The translations under genes and the position numbers were made by a program. The notes below the pieces were generated by a model. The model worked only from the letters and a program-made list of their open reading frames with translations. It did no database searches and was not told where the DNA came from. This document shows positions 12,534 to 43,030 of a DNA stretch of 64,000 nt, in pieces (within the stretch, counting starts at the first letter, position 1; each line of letters opens with the position of its first letter). The stretch lies in NCBI RefSeq assembly GCF_053078305.1, contig NZ_CP166879.1, one strand, 5' to 3'.

Positions 12534-12959
12534 ATGGCAGAAACTCAGATGAGCATGTTTGGTGGTGACAGTGAGCAACTGCACGCCCTTATCGACCGCC
12601 TTGATGACATCCCTGATGATGTTCTCAAAAAGAACTGGCCGCGTACCCTGTCTGAACTGGTTGAAGTCACCGGCGCAGAACTTCAGCGTCAGGGGATTGA
12701 GCCGGTACTGGCCGGTAAACTGGCACGCAAGGTGGCTGCGGCTCAGGCCGCCTATATGGGCGGACGGGGTTATTACCTGCCGGTCGGGGAATCTCTCTTT
12801 GCCGAGCTGCGAAACAATGAGATATTTTCGCGCTGGGACCGGGGCGAGAAAATTGAATCCCTTCGCCGCCATTACCGGATGTCAGAAACCCAGATTTATA
12901 CCGTCATACGTGAACAGCGCCGTCTGCATCTGGCAAGAACACAACCGCCACTTTTCTGA
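12534..12959 (+). CDS. Mor/C-family transcriptional activator
   Basis: 141 aa with C-terminal HTH and pattern …GGRGYYLPVG…ETQIYTVIREQRR similar to recalled Mu Mor. Confidence 0.7.
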   Translation: MAETQMSMFGGDSEQLHALIDRLDDIPDDVLKKNWPRTLSELVEVTGAELQRQGIEPVLAGKLARKVAAAQAAYMGGRGYYLPVGESLFAELRNNEIFSRWDRGEKIESLRRHYRMSETQIYTVIREQRRLHLARTQPPLF

Positions 12960-13030
12960 TATTCCGCAAAGCCTGCCGCCTTTCCTTCACCGTTACGCTG
13001 ACTCAGAGAACATCATGAGACAGCGTAACA

Positions 13031-21007: not shown

Positions 21008-21183
21008 TTGTTTAAGGTATGCAAATGCATTACCTTACCCCCTTCAGGCGCGTGTCGTGATTTTCTAACCTGTATTTAACGGGCTTTAAAATCTGCGTGA
21101 AGCGCCTTTGTATTTTTCCCCTGGAAGCACTTCCTGAAATCCCGCAAAACCCGCCCTGAAAATTCCCGGCTTATGCTGCCGGA

Positions 21184-34084: not shown

Positions 34085-34632
34085 CCCTGACCCCGCATCA
34101 GCGCGCCCTGTTGCAGTTGCTGCCTGACGGGCTGGCATGGGATAAGCGGCCGTCATCCGTTCTTGCAGCTTTGTGCCTGGGCCTCAGTCATTCCACGGAG
34201 CGTGTTTCCTGGACCGGTAACCAGATGCTGGCAGAACGTTTTCCTGATTCATCCCGTCTGCTGCTGGAAGACTGGGAGCGTTATCTGGGGTTGCCGGAAT
34301 GTGATATGACCGGCGCAACCATTCAGGAACGTCAGCGTTATGCCGGGAATAAATACCGGATGAAACCCTCTCTTAACCGTGAATTTTATATCCGGTTTGC
34401 GGCTGAGTTTGGTTATGAAATAGATATCCAGCCATCACCGGAATCACAATGGATCAGTATTGTGACAGTGAAGACGGCGGTGGGATACCGTCACATGAAT
34501 GTACTGGACGATATTCTTACACCACTGCGAATTTATGATGCAAGTGCGCTGGAGTGCATTTTAAACCGTTATAAGCCAGCCTGGCAGACGTTTTTATATC
34601 TGTACGAAAACAGTCATGAGGAGACGGAGTAA
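34075..34632 (+). CDS. tail protein (Mu gp48-like)
   Basis: 185 aa ORF directly upstream of the tail fibre. Confidence 0.6.
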   Translation: MAVTLTPHQRALLQLLPDGLAWDKRPSSVLAALCLGLSHSTERVSWTGNQMLAERFPDSSRLLLEDWERYLGLPECDMTGATIQERQRYAGNKYRMKPSLNREFYIRFAAEFGYEIDIQPSPESQWISIVTVKTAVGYRHMNVLDDILTPLRIYDASALECILNRYKPAWQTFLYLYENSHEETE

Positions 34633-35543
34633 TGTATTTTGTCGACAACAATTCAGGTGTGACCGATATGCCACCACTGGCCCCCTCTCAGGGTACGCAG
34701 GTTAAATGGTTTACTGAAGGTGACGGACGCAAAGGGATCAGCCATATCGGTCAGGACTGGCTGAACATCGTGCAGGCAGAGCTGCTTGCCATTCTGACAG
34801 AAGGAAAGGTTCAGCCGGATAAGGCAAAACTGAACCAGCTGGTGACAGCCATTAAGGCAATCATTGCAGCAAACGCATACAGCCGGAAAAACAACCTTAA
34901 GGAGATTGCGGATGCAGGTGCAGAAGCACAGGCTGCTGCCCGCCGTCATCTGGGGCTGGGAGGATTATCAGGAAAAGACAGTCTGGCTGCTGCTGATGTG
35001 GGAGCACTGGAGAAATCCCGGAATTTTGACGATGTACCGGATAAACCGACGGCCCGCCTGAATCTTGATGTTTACAGTAAGGGAGAAGGCGATGAGCGTT
35101 ATCTGCGCAGGGACCAGAATGGCGCGGATATCCCGGACAAAGGAACCTTTATCGATAACCTCGGTTTACGGGAAACGGTAAATAAGGCTGCTGATGCCCT
35201 GCCATCGGGTGGAACCGCCGTGGCAGCGAATAAACTCGCCACCCCAGTAAATATTAATGGCGTTCCTTTCGACGGAACGCAGGATATCAACATCACGTCA
35301 GGAATGACGCAGTCAACCGCAGATGGCCGGTATGTACAGAATGTTCAGCTTGGAGCACAGAGCTATCATTCACCCGGAGGCAATGAAATGTCATGGAATT
35401 ACAGCGCACCTTCCGGTTGTATGCTTTCCGGTATTAACGTGCAGGAAACCGGCTCCCGGTCTGCGGACAATATCGGTGGGGTCTATTATCGCCCGGTTCA
35501 GATTTATATTAATAATGCCTGGAGAACGGTAAGTTCAGTGTAA
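34632..35543 (+). CDS. tail fibre protein (constant part plus current variable C-terminus)
   Basis: 303 aa; its 3' third overlaps the left inverted repeat of the invertible segment, and its C-terminal ~75 aa are homologous to the inverted fragment at 36179-36400. Confidence 0.75.
   Translation: MYFVDNNSGVTDMPPLAPSQGTQVKWFTEGDGRKGISHIGQDWLNIVQAELLAILTEGKVQPDKAKLNQLVTAIKAIIAANAYSRKNNLKEIADAGAEAQAAARRHLGLGGLSGKDSLAAADVGALEKSRNFDDVPDKPTARLNLDVYSKGEGDERYLRRDQNGADIPDKGTFIDNLGLRETVNKAADALPSGGTAVAANKLATPVNINGVPFDGTQDINITSGMTQSTADGRYVQNVQLGAQSYHSPGGNEMSWNYSAPSGCMLSGINVQETGSRSADNIGGVYYRPVQIYINNAWRTVSSV
35157..35300. repeat. left inverted repeat of tail-fibre invertible segment
   Basis: Perfect 144 bp inverted copy of 36399-36542, checked base by base. 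Confidence 0.85.
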
Positions 35544-35577
35544 ACCACAGAAAAGGGTGCTGAATGCACCCTCTGAA

Positions 35578-36099
35578 TTATTCCGGTTTTTCCGGCCAGG
35601 GAATCGCCTGGTAATGCCCCTCACTGGCAATATCATTAAAGTGCATTTCTTTAAGCTGTCGGATATACGCCATCCAGCGCGTCAGCTGTAATTTATTTTC
35701 ATCGCTAATCATGTCCAGTTTTAATTCCGTTTTCCAGTCATCCACAGTTTCGTTGGCTTCCTGGAGCAGCGATGAGCGGCGCTTTTCAGCAACCGTCTTC
35801 CAGTTTACCGGCACCTTTGATATCAGGCCATCAGAAAACTGCCAGTTACCGTCAATATCCACACCTTCCGGCAGTTCGTCCACTTCAACAACAGTAAAAC
35901 CTGCCGGATATAAAGCAGAGACATCTTCAGCAACAGAGCAGATAATACCCGTTACAGGCGAAATACAGAGTTTGTATTTCTTTGTGAAAAGCGGGAGAGA
36001 TTCATAAAAATCCCTTCCGTCCTCACTCTGGAAATACTGAACATCCTCACCATAGGGTTTGTGTTCCGGGTAATATCGTTTTACGTTAATAAGCTCCAT
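35578..36099 (-). CDS. tail fibre assembly chaperone (U'-like)
   Basis: 173 aa from the ATG at 36099 with AGGTG SD; C-terminal …ISDENKLQLTRWMAYIRQL…PWPEKPE matches the Tfa/U family. Confidence 0.75.
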   Translation of the reverse strand: MELINVKRYYPEHKPYGEDVQYFQSEDGRDFYESLPLFTKKYKLCISPVTGIICSVAEDVSALYPAGFTVVEVDELPEGVDIDGNWQFSDGLISKVPVNWKTVAEKRRSSLLQEANETVDDWKTELKLDMISDENKLQLTRWMAYIRQLKEMHFNDIASEGHYQAIPWPEKPE

Positions 36100-36178
36100 T
36101 ATTTCACCTTGTTTTTGTTGAAAAGACAAAATCATCATATATTTATTCAGATAATCTGTTTTTTGAACTACTGCACTT

Positions 36179-36542
36179 TTATGCGCTGGAAGCTGTTTTC
36201 CACGAACCATTTATCAGAAACTGAACAGGGCGATAATATGCGGTTACCGTTGCATTACCATCACCAGCGACATCAAGCCCTGTAAGTACGCATCCGTCAG
36301 GAACTTCAAAAATATTATATTGCATTCCAATCGTTGACCTTGAACCTCTTCGAATGCTTTGAACATAACGTGAGTCAGCCACAGACTGCGTCATCCCCGA
36401 TGTAATATTGATATCCTGCGTTCCGTCGAAAGGAACGCCATTAATATTTACTGGGGTGGCGAGTTTATTCGCTGCCACGGCGGTTCCACCCGATGGCAGG
36501 GCATCAGCAGCCTTATTTACCGTTTCCCGTAAACCGAGGTTT
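36179..36542 (-). other. alternative tail-fibre variable C-terminal segment (promoterless, usable after inversion)
   Basis: Reverse-strand coding segment homologous to the C-terminus of 34632-35543 (AANKLATPVNINGVPFDGTQDINITSGMTQS…YYRPVQ…), ending at the stop at 36179. Confidence 0.65.
36399..36542. repeat. right inverted repeat of tail-fibre invertible segment
   Basis: Perfect reverse complement of 35157-35300. Confidence 0.85.
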
Positions 36543-36603
36543 CAGGGATGTCGTATATCTGCTTTAAAAGGCATTTTCACCTCTTTTTAAGGAAGGTAAA
36601 TAC

Positions 36604-37164
36604 ATGCTGATTGGCTATATACGCGTATCAACAAATGACCAGAACACAGGTTTACAAAGAAATGCGCTGGAATGTGCAGGATGTAAGCTGATTTTTGAAG
36701 ATAAAATGAGCGGAAAAACAACGCAGCGGCCGGGACTGAAGCGGGCACTGAAGAAACTAAAACCCGGTGACACGCTGATGGTCTGGAAACTGGACAGGCT
36801 GGGGCGCAGTATGCGCCACCTTGTTGCGCTGACAGATGAATTACAGCAACAGGGGATAAATTTTCGTAGTCTTACTGACAACATTGATACGTCAACCCCC
36901 ATGGGGCGCTTCTTTTTTCACATAATGGGTGCGCTGGCAGAAATGGAGCGTGAATTGATTGTCGAACGGACACGGGCTGGTCTTGCAGCTGCCCGTGAAA
37001 GGGGACGAACCGGTGGCAGACCCCGTCGTCTCACGCAGGAACAATACGAGCAGGTCGGGCGTTTACTGGCCGGGGGTGTCAGCCGAAGACAGGTGGCACT
37101 TATTTTTGATATCGGCCTTTCAACCCTTTATCGTTATTATCCTGCAAGCATTTCGGAAAAATAA
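36604..37164 (+). CDS. gin: Gin/Hin/Pin-family serine DNA invertase
   Basis: 186 aa starting MLIGYIRVSTNDQ… with resolvase catalytic domain and C-terminal HTH, adjacent to the inverted repeats. Confidence 0.9.
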   Translation: MLIGYIRVSTNDQNTGLQRNALECAGCKLIFEDKMSGKTTQRPGLKRALKKLKPGDTLMVWKLDRLGRSMRHLVALTDELQQQGINFRSLTDNIDTSTPMGRFFFHIMGALAEMERELIVERTRAGLAAARERGRTGGRPRRLTQEQYEQVGRLLAGGVSRRQVALIFDIGLSTLYRYYPASISEK

Positions 37165-37254
37165 GACGCTCCCTTTGTTGGGCCTTTACTGAATTAACGC
37201 AAAATGGCGTTTATCGGTCTGTGGATATGATAATTCTGTTTATTCAGGAACAGG

Positions 37255-39312
37255 ATGAATATTATGACGTCCAAATGGGTTCAACTATCATCAATGCCCG
37301 GAAACTTTACCGTTAAAGTTTCCGGTGGTACAGCGGCATTTCTTGAGGCTCCTTTTCCTCCGGCTGAAACGAAAGGAGGAATGACATTTGCTGACTGTCT
37401 CATCAGTTTTAATACACAGGATTGCCTGTGGGTAAGGCCAGTATCCGGTGATCCGAACGTGGAAATTACCGGAGCGGGTATTGGTGCTGTCATTCCGTTA
37501 AGTGCTGATGTTGCCGGTACTACTGAACCGTCAGACTGGGATAATGCTGAAACACATACCCGTCCGGCAGGAAATGAAACGGCTTCCAGCTCCCCTTCCT
37601 GGTATTACGTGATTGTTATAGCCGGTCAGTCCAATGCTTCATCTTATGGTGAAGGGTTGCCCCTGCCGGATTCTTATGATCGTCCTGATCCACGTATTAT
37701 GCAGCTGGCACGCAGGAATACACAAACCCCCGGAGGTATTCCCTGCAAATACAATGAAATCATTCCAGCAGATCACTGCCTTCATGATGTTCAGAATATG
37801 AGTCTGCTGAACCATCCAAAAGCAGACCTGAAAAAAGGGCAGTATGGTTGTGTGGGTCAGGGACTTCATATTGCGAAAAAAGTATTACCGGTGATTCCTG
37901 CTGATGCCGGGATTTTACTGGTTCCCTGTGCCCGTGGCGGCTCTGCTTTTACAACCGGCGCAGTTGGCTCATTCGATCCGGCAAGTGGTGCAGCCGAGGC
38001 GTCACTACGCTGGGGAGTGGATACCCCACTGTATCAGGATCTTGTCAGTCGAACGAAAGCGGCACTTGAGGCGAATCCAAAGAATGTGCTGTTATCTGTC
38101 GTATGGATTCAGGGGGAAGGAGACCTTAAAGCGACCCCGGCCCAGCATGGTGCCCAGTTTACTGCGATGGTGAAAAAATTCCGTGCGGATCTTGGTGCTT
38201 TCTCCGGTCAGTGTATTGGTGGTTCATCAGACAGTGTGCCGTGGTTATGTGGTGACACAACCTATGACTGGAAAGAGAAGAACCCGGCGGCATATGAAAC
38301 CATTTATAGCGGATATAAAAACCGGGCTTCCGAGAACATTCACTTTGTTCCACTGATGCACGATGAGTTCGGTAATAAAACCGCGACCAACCTGCCGGAG
38401 CACGACCCGGATATCGCTTCTGCCGGGTATTATGGTGCGGAATCACGGGGAGATGGCAACTGGACAACAGCATCCAGGGCAACCCATTTTAGCTCCTGGG
38501 CGCGCCGTTTTCTGGTCTCAGATCGTTTTGCATCAGCAATTCTTAAATATGCAGGTCTGACCTCTGCATTTATTGCCGGTGTGGCCCCTGATGGTGAAGC
38601 CCTGCCTCAGCCCGCGCCGGGTGGAAAACCGGAAGCTCCGACAGGTAGTCAGCCAGGAAGCAGTGAGTCCCCCCAGCCGACATCCCCGTCACTCCGTACG
38701 CTGCTTTCACTTAAAGCATCAGCAGGGGAAGCCCCGGCTCAGGGATGGAAAATTACAGATGGTACAATCCAGCTGACGGACGAAGGTAAAGCGCTGACCG
38801 TATCCAAACAAAGCGGAAAAACCTGGTCACTTACCCATGCGACCAGTGCTGCCGGAGAGCTGTTGCAGCATGGTGGTCAGTTGACCTGTAAATTCCGTCT
38901 GTCAGGTGAAGTAAAAGAAGGCCAGTTTGCTCTGGGTATTTACCTCCACACCGATACGGTCCCGGAAGGTGTAACCATGAGTGGTACAGGCACACCGTTC
39001 CTGATGGCGTATTATCTCCAGACAACAGGCGGCCAGTTAAATCTGATGCACCATAAAACAGGGGGGAATACGAAACTGGGATCATTTGGAGCCTACAATA
39101 ACCAGTGGCATACACTTGTCCTGAAGTTTACGGCGGGAAGTGCCCAGGTAACGCCTGTGCTGGATGGCACTCCGGGCCAGGCATTCCAGATGGTGAAAGA
39201 TGCACTTTCCCCTGCCAAAGATACGCTGACACTGACAGATGTCACCAAAGGGGCAACTTATGGCGTGTCTTTTGAGAGCGTTGTCCTTGAGGTTAATACC
39301 CCTGCGGCATAA
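37255..39312 (+). CDS. NanS-like SGNH esterase (putative 9-O-acetyl sialic acid esterase) with C-terminal extension
   Basis: 685 aa; residues ~115-430 closely resemble recalled E. coli NanS/YjhS (YYVIVIAGQSNASSYGEGLPLPDS…DTPLYQDLVSRTKAAL…CGDTT…DRF); ~250 aa extra C-terminal domain. Confidence 0.7.
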   Translation: MNIMTSKWVQLSSMPGNFTVKVSGGTAAFLEAPFPPAETKGGMTFADCLISFNTQDCLWVRPVSGDPNVEITGAGIGAVIPLSADVAGTTEPSDWDNAETHTRPAGNETASSSPSWYYVIVIAGQSNASSYGEGLPLPDSYDRPDPRIMQLARRNTQTPGGIPCKYNEIIPADHCLHDVQNMSLLNHPKADLKKGQYGCVGQGLHIAKKVLPVIPADAGILLVPCARGGSAFTTGAVGSFDPASGAAEASLRWGVDTPLYQDLVSRTKAALEANPKNVLLSVVWIQGEGDLKATPAQHGAQFTAMVKKFRADLGAFSGQCIGGSSDSVPWLCGDTTYDWKEKNPAAYETIYSGYKNRASENIHFVPLMHDEFGNKTATNLPEHDPDIASAGYYGAESRGDGNWTTASRATHFSSWARRFLVSDRFASAILKYAGLTSAFIAGVAPDGEALPQPAPGGKPEAPTGSQPGSSESPQPTSPSLRTLLSLKASAGEAPAQGWKITDGTIQLTDEGKALTVSKQSGKTWSLTHATSAAGELLQHGGQLTCKFRLSGEVKEGQFALGIYLHTDTVPEGVTMSGTGTPFLMAYYLQTTGGQLNLMHHKTGGNTKLGSFGAYNNQWHTLVLKFTAGSAQVTPVLDGTPGQAFQMVKDALSPAKDTLTLTDVTKGATYGVSFESVVLEVNTPAA

Positions 39313-39584
39313 TCGTGACGGCCGGGAATTTATCCGGCTGTAACATCAGTTAATAAGAGTGAGGCTTATATGACATATATAAACGTCTGCCTGCTGTATT
39401 TCTGCACGGTGGTTTGTTGTCTGTTGCTTGTCAGCGGTGGTTATAAAATTATTCGCAATTATTTTCGAAATAAAATTGATGCAGCTGCCGAGGAAAAGAT
39501 AAAAAGCGGTGCTGTAATGCCGCAGCCGAAAGACTCCGGTCAGATTTAATTTTTTGTGAACCAGAAAAGGAAAGGAGAATATTC

Positions 39585-39830
39585 ATGCCAGAGATTAAAG
39601 GCACGGTTACTGAAGAGCTTGTCAAACAGGCACTTTATTCTGAAGAAGTGAACCGCGTGCTGAAGGCGCAGGTTCGCAAGGATTTTGAGGCACAAATCGA
39701 CGCATATGTTGATGAAGTGCTGGCCCGAATGGTTGGCCATTCTCCGGCTGAAAACAGCACGGAGAATGAGCCTCAGCCCGTAGAGCAACCAGAGCCGGTT
39801 CAGCCCGGAACTGACAGTGCCATGATGTAA
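39585..39830 (+). CDS. hypothetical small acidic protein
   Basis: 81 aa ORF with strong SD AAAGGAAAGGAG upstream. Confidence 0.4.
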   Translation: MPEIKGTVTEELVKQALYSEEVNRVLKAQVRKDFEAQIDAYVDEVLARMVGHSPAENSTENEPQPVEQPEPVQPGTDSAMM

Positions 39831-40760: not shown

Positions 40761-40961
40761 ATGTATCGAAACATACGGTGCCGACACTGCAATAAGCTAC
40801 TGGCACGGGCCAGTTTCAGTTATCTGGAAGTAAAATGTCCGCGCTGTAAAACCCTCAATCAAATCACATCTCCGAGCGCCACAGAGCACCCCACATACAC
40901 AAGGAAATCCTGTCGTGGGGAACAGAAAGCAAGTCACATCCCGTATCATCAGCACGCCTGA
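40761..40961 (+). CDS. com: Com-like zinc-finger translational activator
   Basis: 66 aa from the ATG at 40761: [14 protein letters not shown]…[10 protein letters not shown], two CxxC pairs as in Mu Com; 3' end overlaps the mom start. Confidence 0.7.
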
Positions 40962-41652
40962 ACTTATTCGCTATAACGACAATATCGTTGGTTATGGTTC
41001 CCGTGAGTTGCGGGTTGAGACAATAAGTTGCTGGCTGGCCAGACTGGTTATCGTCAATAAACATTACAGCCACCGTTTCGTAAATAACTCCTACCTTCAT
41101 CTGGGCATATTTTCAGAACGGGAACTTGTTGGCGTAATGCAATGGGGTTACGCCCTTAACCCAAACAGTGGTGCACGCGTCGTAACGGGTACGCAGAACC
41201 GAGAATATATGGAGCTGAACCGGCTATGGATGCATGACTGTATGCCGAGAAACTCCGAATCAAGGGCAATCAGTTACGCGCTCAAGCTAATCAGGCAGCT
41301 TTATCCGCAGGTACAGTGGGTTCAGTCGTTTGCAGATGAGCGTTGTGGCTGTCTTGGTGTCGTGTATCAGGCAAGCAATTTTGATTATGTAGGCAGCCAT
41401 GAAACAATATTCTATGAACTTGATGGCGAGTGGTATCACGAGATTTGCAGGAATGCCATTAAACGAGGCGGACAACGAGGTGAACATCTGAGGGCTAATA
41501 TCGACAGAGCCAGTGTGCATAAGTTCCGACAGTTTCGTTACATCCGGTTTCTGAACAAGAGGGCCAGAAAACGCCTCAACACAAAGCTATTCAAAGTCCA
41601 GCCTTACCCAAAACCACAAACAGTTAAAACTGGTTTGAAAGAGAGTGAATGA
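40915..41652 (+). CDS. mom: Mom-like DNA modification protein
   Basis: 245 aa ORF (GTG start) overlapping com and located at the right phage end, the Mu com/mom arrangement; function by position and architecture. Confidence 0.6.
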
Positions 41653-41710: not shown

Positions 41711-41764
41711 TTGCGTATCGGCGTTTTTCAGCGGTATCAAATGAAATGCAAATCGGTATCAAAA
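41711..41764. repeat. right-end transposase-binding repeats (attR-like)
   Basis: CGTATCGG (41714-41721), GCGGTATCAAA (41731-41741), TCGGTATCAAA (41753-41763), inverted relative to the left-end copies. Confidence 0.6.
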
Positions 41765-43030
41765 AAATCGCCGCGCTATACCCACCAGACTCATTCCTGC
41801 CCAGCCTACAGGACTCAGGTTACCGTAAAGAATGACCGCCAATATTGCCAGTCCACCCCATTGCAAAAAAGTATCAGGCCGGTAAAACGAAGACTTTTTA
41901 CGCGGCAGATAAAATTTCTGCATCCGTAAAAATGCCCTGCGTAAGACTCTGTTGCGTCTCCCCGTAAGAACGACCTTATCGCCTTTACGAAATAACGCTT
42001 CCAGTAATAACTGCTCTGCGGGCAGTAATACCTCATTATTTCTGGTCGCGCCTTCATTAACACGAATCAGGATTTGCTGGTTCTTATCATACTGATCTTC
42101 CAGATGAATTTTTCCTTTCACAATCAGATTTACGATATCGGCACAAAACCCTTTATCGTCGTAAACCAGCTTCGCATCGAGACGTAACATGCCGGGCGTG
42201 TAATCTGGCGGAATGACATCGGTTTCAATCACATCTACCGGCGTAAATTGCGGCCTGCGCTTCCAGAGATATAACCATCCACAAACCAGGAATAGACACG
42301 GAAACCAAATTAACAACGATGACGTGGAGGGTAAAAGAAGATGGCTGAAAATATTCGTCGTTTGTGGAGCCGGGGCATTGCTAAGTAACGAGTGAGGCCA
42401 ACGGTAGAGGACCGTGAAATCTTCACGATAAAACGGATCGCTGGATTCAATTCTTCCGTCCTCAAGGATGCGGCCATTTCGATATGTGTCGCCCTCTTCT
42501 CCAGTAAAGAGATCGATTTCGCTAAATGGATTACCCGCGATATCAGGGAACTTGAGTGAAAATCGGGTCTTATAGATTTCAAACGGCCAGTGGTTACCAG
42601 TCACGTTCCAGATTAACAGATCTGAATCTCCCTCACGCAGGAAAGCATTTTTAACCTGATAATGAATTTGATAATGATAGTCGCCTTGGGGCAAGAAACG
42701 TTGTTTATCGCCCACGACAATACTCATTAACCCGATATGCCAGTCAAGATGCCAGGGTTCAGGAATACCATCACGGGTTACGCCAACAATATGATAGTTC
42801 AGCAGTGCTGCGTCCCCATCAGGCTGCATCCAGAGTCGTGGTAAATCACGATAAAATCCGTGCTTAATCTGCTGATTTCGCGCCTGAAAATGAATGTTCT
42901 CTTTGATGTCGAGCACCCCATCCGGTTGCAGAGTGGCTTCAGAAGGGATCTCCGTGTTTTCTGCATAACTTAGAGATGATACAAACAGCCCTGCTATCAA
43001 CAGCAAAATGCAGCGAAACTTCCCTGCCAT
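41759..43030 (-). pseudogene. yciQ: yciQ 5' fragment (N-terminal part), truncated by the prophage; stop codon formed at the junction
   Basis: 423 aa ORF with signal peptide whose TGA (41759-41761) lies inside the phage terminal motif. Confidence 0.75.

Follow-up and report, generated by a model that had tools for sequence, protein, structure and literature searches.

An invertible tail-fibre segment with a single chaperone gene in a Mu-like prophage of Escherichia coli

Results

Anatomy of the invertible segment

We analysed a 64,000-nt stretch of DNA (contig NZ_CP166879.1 of assembly GCF_053078305.1; hereafter the window), in which a Mu-like prophage of the Sp18 type carries a tail-fibre gene, an invertible segment that holds an alternative fibre C-terminus and a single tfa chaperone gene, and the DNA invertase gene gin. 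An earlier note on this DNA, made from the sequence alone, had described an asymmetric invertible fibre segment at positions 35157–36542. This description was borne out by the repeats, by the crossover sites and by the occurrence of both orientations in nature.

The fibre open reading frame (ORF) in its expressed form (34632–35543, plus strand) codes for 303 residues and runs through the left repeat of the segment. Its constant 5′ part, Sc (34632–35161, plus strand), extends to the crossover point and is followed by tip A (35162–35543, plus strand), the C-terminus that is now joined to the gene. Fibre residues 1–198 match residues 1–191 of Mu S (PDB 5yvq_A, E = 5e-49), whereas the match at the C-terminal end of tip A, fibre residues 228–302, is to the Mu S tip (residues 434–503, PDB 5yvq). 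The silent alternative C-terminus, tip B1 (36179–36536, minus strand), would complete a fibre of 298 residues once inverted. Both fusion ORFs are intact and in frame. The assignment of the current C-terminus to the plus strand, and of the alternative one together with a chaperone gene of the U′ type to the minus strand, was thus correct in the earlier note.

This chaperone gene, tfa (allele T1, 35578–36099, minus strand), is the sole tfa, codes for 173 residues and has its own Shine–Dalgarno sequence (AAGGTGA). Its product belongs to the Tfa family by full-length similarity to PHROG 136 (E = 6e-58) and by similarity to Mu U (PDB 5yvq_B, E = 2e-15). It has the two-domain layout of Mu U, and PF02413 (Caudo_TAP) was found on homologues that are 98% identical. 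As had been claimed, no chaperone gene lies downstream of the expressed fibre: only 34 nt separate the fibre stop codon from the convergent stop codon of tfa, and these contain a GC-rich hairpin (35552–35574) that is terminator-like in the tfa direction and is also found in L017 and L028. At its other end, tfa is preceded by an AT-rich spacer of 79 nt between the stop codon of tip B1 and the tfa start codon (36100–36178, minus strand), which is a candidate site for an orientation-independent tfa promoter. A tblastn search of the whole prophage with nine Tfa proteins of several types returned the known tfa only, with no second tfa and no remnant of a deleted one.

The adjoining gin gene (36604–37164, plus strand), also expected from the earlier note, encodes a serine DNA invertase of 186 residues that shares 74% identity with Mu Gin across 181 residues and matches PHROG 125, "DNA invertase" (E = 5e-94). 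The motif YIRVSTNDQ places a serine at position 9, and homologues carry the PF00239 and PF02796 domains. The segment is therefore accompanied by an adjacent small serine recombinase of the Din family (Gin/Cin/Pin/Hin). Over its first 260 nt, gin shares 72% identity with Mu gin, and nt 68–112 form a well-conserved block. Fis-like 15-mers occur in this 5′ part and no enhancer pair could be assigned with confidence. A search of positions 34500–37400 against Rfam gave no match, and no match was confirmed in a scan of a collection of genome contigs with the constant fibre part as query.

The two arms of the inverted repeat (35157–35338 and 36360–36541) are each 182 nt long and 91% complementary. 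The repeat had been noted as perfect over 144 bp, and its perfect part measures 134 bp (35157–35290 and 36408–36541). The repeats are far above chance expectation, as they end in Gin-type crossover sites and code for the identical 45 residues of both fibre forms. The left, gix-like crossover site (35149–35174) is 26 bp long and reads TTATCGATAACC-TC-GGTTTACGGGAA; the right site, of the same length (36524–36549), reads ATCCCTGAAACC-TC-GGTTTACGGGAA on the reverse complement. The central TC is common to both sites, which are mutually inverted and both read ...AACC-TC-GGTTTACGGGAA. They are nearly identical to the PacBio-verified crossover sites of the EC958 prophages Phi1 and Phi4, TTATCGAATACCTCGGTTTACGAGAA, and fit the consensus of the Mu, P1, e14 and p15B sites quoted in the same paper (PMC4134206).

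The segment is poorly served by automatic annotation, which labels silent tips as pseudogenes. In the window, a spurious 60-aa "hypothetical protein" is annotated across the right repeat (36408–36590, plus strand). The flipped fibre gene is mis-called in RefSeq records: in the O157:H7 strain ECP19-198 (L014, 926–1813), the full fibre ORF is uncalled and just a 67-aa fragment is annotated.

Inversion in nature and distribution of the layout

The nearest relatives of the locus are Sp18-type Mu-like prophages of Shiga-toxin-producing E. coli, which are 93% identical across it. We searched 5426 complete E. coli genomes with the window sequence and with a query whose segment was flipped in silico at the crossover sites, and counted genomes in which at least 80% of the locus was collinear. 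The window orientation was found in 181 genomes and a flipped copy in 23, so that about 200 complete genomes carry the layout, with a median of one place per genome. An exact inversion of 1385 bp distinguishes the O157:H7 strain PA20 from strain ECP19-198, at 99.5% identity with collinear flanks, and the flipped form in ECP19-198 has an intact, in-frame Sc-B1 fibre ORF followed by tfa. A third haplotype likewise occurs in both orientations (assemblies L016 and L017), and the strains SMN197SH3 and 07_3636 each hold two copies in opposite orientations. Inversion of the segment therefore takes place in nature.

Every Sp18-type locus listed or fetched has one tfa, and these loci fall into three haplotypes so deeply diverged that dS in tfa is saturated. 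In the loci examined, tip A is always on the side without a co-oriented tfa, and tfa is in every case co-oriented with a tip of the B group: B1 in the window and in O157, the Mu-S-tip-like B2 in L003–L005, or B3 in L016 and L017. The one-tfa layout is the norm of the family and not damage. The Tfa alleles T1, T2 and T3 share 64–68% mutual protein identity. Allele T1 stands behind B1 in the window and L001, and behind the Mu-S-like tip B2 in L004, so it is not tied to a single tip.

The invertible host-specificity region of Sp18 in O157:H7 Sakai has the same architecture gene for gene. Its segment contents are 99% identical to those of the window (35157–36541). The constant fibre part of the window (34632–35156), in contrast, matches that of Sp18 at only 70% identity and instead shares 95–99% identity with L003 and L005. 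Across the comparison of the window with L001 and L003–L005, the invertible contents show the reverse identity pattern to the constant part. The window locus is thus a mosaic. In L004, a recombination breakpoint falls exactly at the tfa start codon, where a B2 tip and its spacer are joined to a T1 tfa. The repeat arms of relatives are far less similar (about 72–89%), so the perfect repeat of 134 bp in the window looks like recent homogenisation and is unnecessary for inversion.

Tip A and its probable chaperone class

The tip A haplotypes differ at 35–41 of 249 nt but at only 4–7 of 83 residues (pN/pS 0.12, p = 1e-12). By this measure, tip A is under strong purifying selection and is clearly functional. 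Tip A is 54–64% identical to the tips of Rac-SA53, P2-like H and SfMu. Where tips with this degree of identity to A occur, in Rac-SA53, PhiR44_2 (P2-like), SfMu, CR3, vB_YpM_44 and pPE4, a tfa gene follows 1–5 nt after the tip. By these relatives, tip A belongs to a Tfa-dependent class.

The N-terminal domain of Tfa is the fibre-binding one according to North et al (2019), as summarised in PMC9608196. In the window Tfa, this domain is closest to those of the Rac-SA53 Tfa (67%) and the CR3 Tfa (44%), and the tips that these two partner share 64% and 55% identity with tip A. Tip B1 has its nearest relative in Hafnia phage yong1, and that tip pairs with a Mu-U-like Tfa instead. Judged by its N-terminal domain, then, the window Tfa looks like a partner of A-like tips. 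The N-terminal domain of the phage 186 Tfa is its second-closest relative (52%).

The closest relatives of tip A and the Tfa N-terminal domain are found in the pairs tail1/tail2 of Rac-SA53, K/orf of phage 186 and gp028/gp029 of CR3. In contrast to the window segment, these are fixed pairs: the two genes are collinear with a gap of 2–5 nt, and both an invertase and an alternative tip are absent. Phage 186, which is without an invertase, carries in its K gene (L012, 1909–1934) an annotated relic "Mu-like inversion crossover site".

Locked derivatives and the tfa spacer

Six loci (L028–L033) represent derivatives in which gin, the right crossover site and nearly the whole of tip B are missing, so that they are locked in the A form. 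Their layout is DUF6645 gene (leftward), spacer, tfa (rightward) and, convergent to it, the A-form fibre gene (leftward). The derivatives have one deletion junction in common, which spans from inside the 3′ end of a recombinase gene up to the final ~10 codons of tip B and is found in seven complete genomes. The M18 and CI5 prophages with this junction are only 92% identical and are inserted in different host genes. The M18 prophage (NZ_CP010219.1, 3408421–3409061) interrupts the gene for a type I restriction R subunit and has a fibre of 293 residues with a diverged tip; the CI5 prophage (NZ_CP011018.1, 4273616–4274256) interrupts a pseudogene adjoining xdhB, presumably xdhA.

At the locked loci, tfa can never become co-oriented with the fibre gene. 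Selection on tfa among these loci is purifying, with pN/pS values of 0.18–0.40 (p ≤ 3e-3) over pairs that are not independent. The 118-nt spacer differs at 0–7.6% of positions as compared with 14–29% of synonymous sites (p from 7e-3 to 1e-8, the pairs again not being independent). Because these loci are intact and their tfa is constrained, the convergent fibre/tfa module works on its own.

The gap between the tip B stop codon and the tfa start codon measures 79 nt behind B1, 120–121 nt behind B2 and 51 nt behind B3; in each case, it is AT-rich and followed by a strong ribosome-binding site. All Sp18-type loci thus have a spacer of 51–121 nt, as compared with 1–8 nt in nine other fibre–tfa pairs. 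Conservation of the B2-type spacer exceeds that of synonymous sites. Some annotation pipelines call an N-terminally extended Tfa of 190 residues. We rejected this extension: it is confined to the B2 spacer, its ATG is without a Shine–Dalgarno sequence and the B3 spacer has in-frame stop codons.

Comparison with other invertible fibre segments

The G segment of Mu (S-U / U′-S′), like those of SfMu and the Yersinia phage vB_YpM_44, lies at the same place in the genome, between a gp48-like baseplate gene and the genes gin, com and mom. The Mu crossover site falls at the same point of a homologous fibre N-terminus (residues 1–198 in the window and 1–191 in Mu S), the tip fold is homologous, the invertases are 74% identical and alternative fusions in frame are common to both segments. 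They differ in size, Mu having a segment of 3 kb as opposed to 1.4 kb in the window. Mu S has 504 residues, whereas the window fibre has 303 and is without the Mu shaft. The repeats are 34 bp in Mu and 134–182 bp in the window. Mu has two tfa genes and the window one, and the gap before tfa is 2 nt in Mu as opposed to 51–121 nt in Sp18-type loci. The two tip–chaperone pairs that mark the Mu G type are absent here, with one tfa in the segment, in the prophage and in all relatives.

The P segment of e14, the C segment of P1, the Min segment of p15B, those of the EC958 prophages Phi1, Phi2 and Phi4 and that of a Salmonella P2-like prophage use the same family of 26-bp sites and Din-type invertases. 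The Salmonella prophage also has a Tfa of the same family, 53% identical to that of the window. In these mirror-image segments (e14, P1, p15B, EC958 and Salmonella), a chaperone or minor fibre gene of its own lies downstream of each tip, whereas one side of the window segment is without either.

The prophage and its other genes

The prophage spans 39.3 kb (2443–41780, plus strand) and interrupts E. coli yciQ. The host flanks are 99% identical to yciK-cobO-rluB-yciQ and yciQ-rnm-yciO-trpE of E. coli, and the host matches on either side abut with an overlap of 4 bp (CCCA). The prophage termini lie inside yciQ, in the regions 2425–2480 and 41740–41800, and the left terminus begins TGTAACC. Insertion of Mu is expected to leave a 5-bp duplication; here, the overlap is 4 bp and the fifth base is unlike (G vs A).

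Homologues of Mu C, Lys, I, N, P, Gin, Com and Mom are encoded. The C homologue (12534–12959) is 39% identical to Mu C. A 17-nt motif, ATYCCGCAAARCCYGCC, is shared by positions 12961–12977 and 21139–21155 (plus strand), upstream of the lys and I homologues, and TTAYGCTG follows 29 nt after its CCGCAAA core. These sites are probably late promoters driven by the C homologue of the phage. The motif differs from that of Mu, CATAACCCC, and the P and mom promoters yielded no convincing counterpart. The Mu C-type late motif ATAAYCMC-N20-(-10) was also sought and is missing in this phage from the places where it would be expected.

Between gin and com/mom lies a gene for a protein of 685 residues (37255–39312, plus strand), with a SASA sialate O-acetylesterase domain (PF03629, E = 7.5e-13), a DUF6645 domain (E = 1.5e-25) and a match to PHROG 143, a family of unknown function. 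Mu has no counterpart of this SASA/DUF6645 gene at the same position, whereas every Sp18-type locus examined has one. Its product may be cargo that acts on host or mucus sugars, or a virion-associated esterase. Small DUF1378 and DUF826 genes follow at 39370–39549 and 39585–39830. The right end of the prophage (40767–41613) encodes homologues of Mu Mom (79%) and Com (47%); the DNA-modification module has therefore been retained, and the regulatory region is strongly diverged from that of Mu.

Discussion

Invertible fibre segments are the textbook case of programmed host-range switching, and the accepted design gives every tip its own chaperone. At this locus, we favour an inversion switch of the Gin/gix type with one generalist Tfa, expressed in both orientations and serving both tips, a reading to which we assign a probability of roughly 0.6. 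Gin would recombine the two 26-bp crossover sites and invert 1375 bp, joining the constant fibre N-terminus to tip A, as at present, or to tip B1; the single Tfa would assemble both fibre forms. In the B orientation, tfa would be read together with the fibre gene that precedes it, as part of the late operon. In the A orientation, tfa is convergent to the fibre gene and so would require a promoter of its own, most likely in or just upstream of the long AT-rich spacer. We infer that tfa is transcribed in the A orientation from the selection on it and from the locked derivatives, and the site and timing of this transcription are proposed in the same conditional sense. In the RNA-seq study of PA20, Sp18 was not induced by the treatment used. 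That Tfa binds the tip A it would serve, and is needed for its assembly, we likewise infer from the partner associations of its relatives and from the selection at locked loci.

Several observations weigh against a generalist Tfa made in both orientations. The selection on tfa in locked loci may owe something to alleles that recombination brought in from invertible relatives. A scan of the spacer for consensus promoters found none. Sigma-70-like candidates were returned by a position weight matrix, namely TTCAAG-19-TATAAT (36344), ATGGTA-17-TATTAT (36261) and, in B2 loci, ATGACC-18-TACAAT. They lie within the coding ends of tip B, triplet shuffles match their scores (P = 0.26–0.55), and controls from Mu, SfMu, P2-like and Rac loci overlap with them; we rejected all three as evidence. 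The ATYCCGCAAARCCYGCC motif is absent in and near the segment at up to three mismatches. The B1, B2 and B3 spacers, moreover, do not align and are not homologous to each other, so that no single conserved element can be named.

An alternative that we consider unlikely is that tip A needs no chaperone. Tfa would then be made only in the B orientation, the A fibre would fold unaided or with host factors, and the switch would toggle between a Tfa-capped and a bare fibre. The co-orientation of tfa with tip B in every locus, the lack of an identified A-orientation promoter and the evident functionality of tip A are all compatible with such a toggle. According to the summary in PMC9608196, moreover, Mu Tfa stays at the tip of the fibre and has a part in recognising the receptor, so its presence or absence could alter specificity. 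However, A-like tips (54–64% identical) in six other phages are all directly followed by tfa, and the closest relatives of the window Tfa partner such tips. The locked loci are harder still to accommodate: their tfa would be unusable, yet it is intact and under purifying selection, and its spacer is constrained.

The earlier note had left open two readings, a single chaperone that serves both orientations, which is the one favoured here, or a current orientation that became chaperone-deficient after a deletion. On the latter, an ancestral second tfa behind tip A would have been lost and the phage in the A orientation would be crippled, without working fibres. The paired, mirror-image chaperones of Mu, SfMu, vB_YpM_44, the Salmonella P2-like prophage and the EC958 prophages, and the fact that only a 34-nt hairpin gap follows tip A, could be taken to point to such a loss. 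We nevertheless regard it as very improbable, given that no tfa remnant was found and that the layout recurs in three deeply diverged haplotypes. Neither the constraint on tip A (pN/pS 0.12) nor the greater frequency of the A orientation in assemblies (181 vs 23) is what a crippled form would show, and the locked A-form prophages have diversified at different host sites.

Supply of Tfa to the A fibre in trans, from genome copies that flip in the course of lytic replication, from another resident copy in the opposite orientation or from the tfa genes of other prophages, has the slimmest chance of all: two copies in opposite orientations do reside in SMN197SH3 and 07_3636 and E. coli genomes hold many tfa genes, but the gin-less derivatives cannot flip and still persist and spread, most genomes are single-copy, and the late genes of other prophages would not be switched on by this phage.

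The element is best classed as a conserved variant of the Mu G-type host-range switch, with one chaperone. It is already in databases and was flagged as "atypical" in 2009; in the literature that we examined, the single chaperone is neither mentioned nor explained. The novelty lies in the evidence for an asymmetry that is both designed and functional. A more far-reaching proposal, which we see as evenly poised, is that the Sp18-type tfa is a universal chaperone gene with its own orientation-independent promoter, whose product serves a fixed tip A and exchangeable B1, B2 and B3 tips, the latter brought in by recombination at the crossover site and the tfa start codon.

A chaperone gene convergent to one of its client genes across a widespread family implies that broad Tfa specificity is possible and that tfa regulation is separable from the fibre operon. 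If the universal-chaperone proposal is true, these loci are a compact cassette of one chaperone and many tips, and Tfa need not be matched one-to-one to a fibre or co-transcribed with it. Efforts to engineer the host range of phages and tailocins would be made simpler by one Tfa that serves several tips. Members of the family are frequent among Shiga-toxin-producing E. coli, in which this Mu-like phage is considered intact and mobile.

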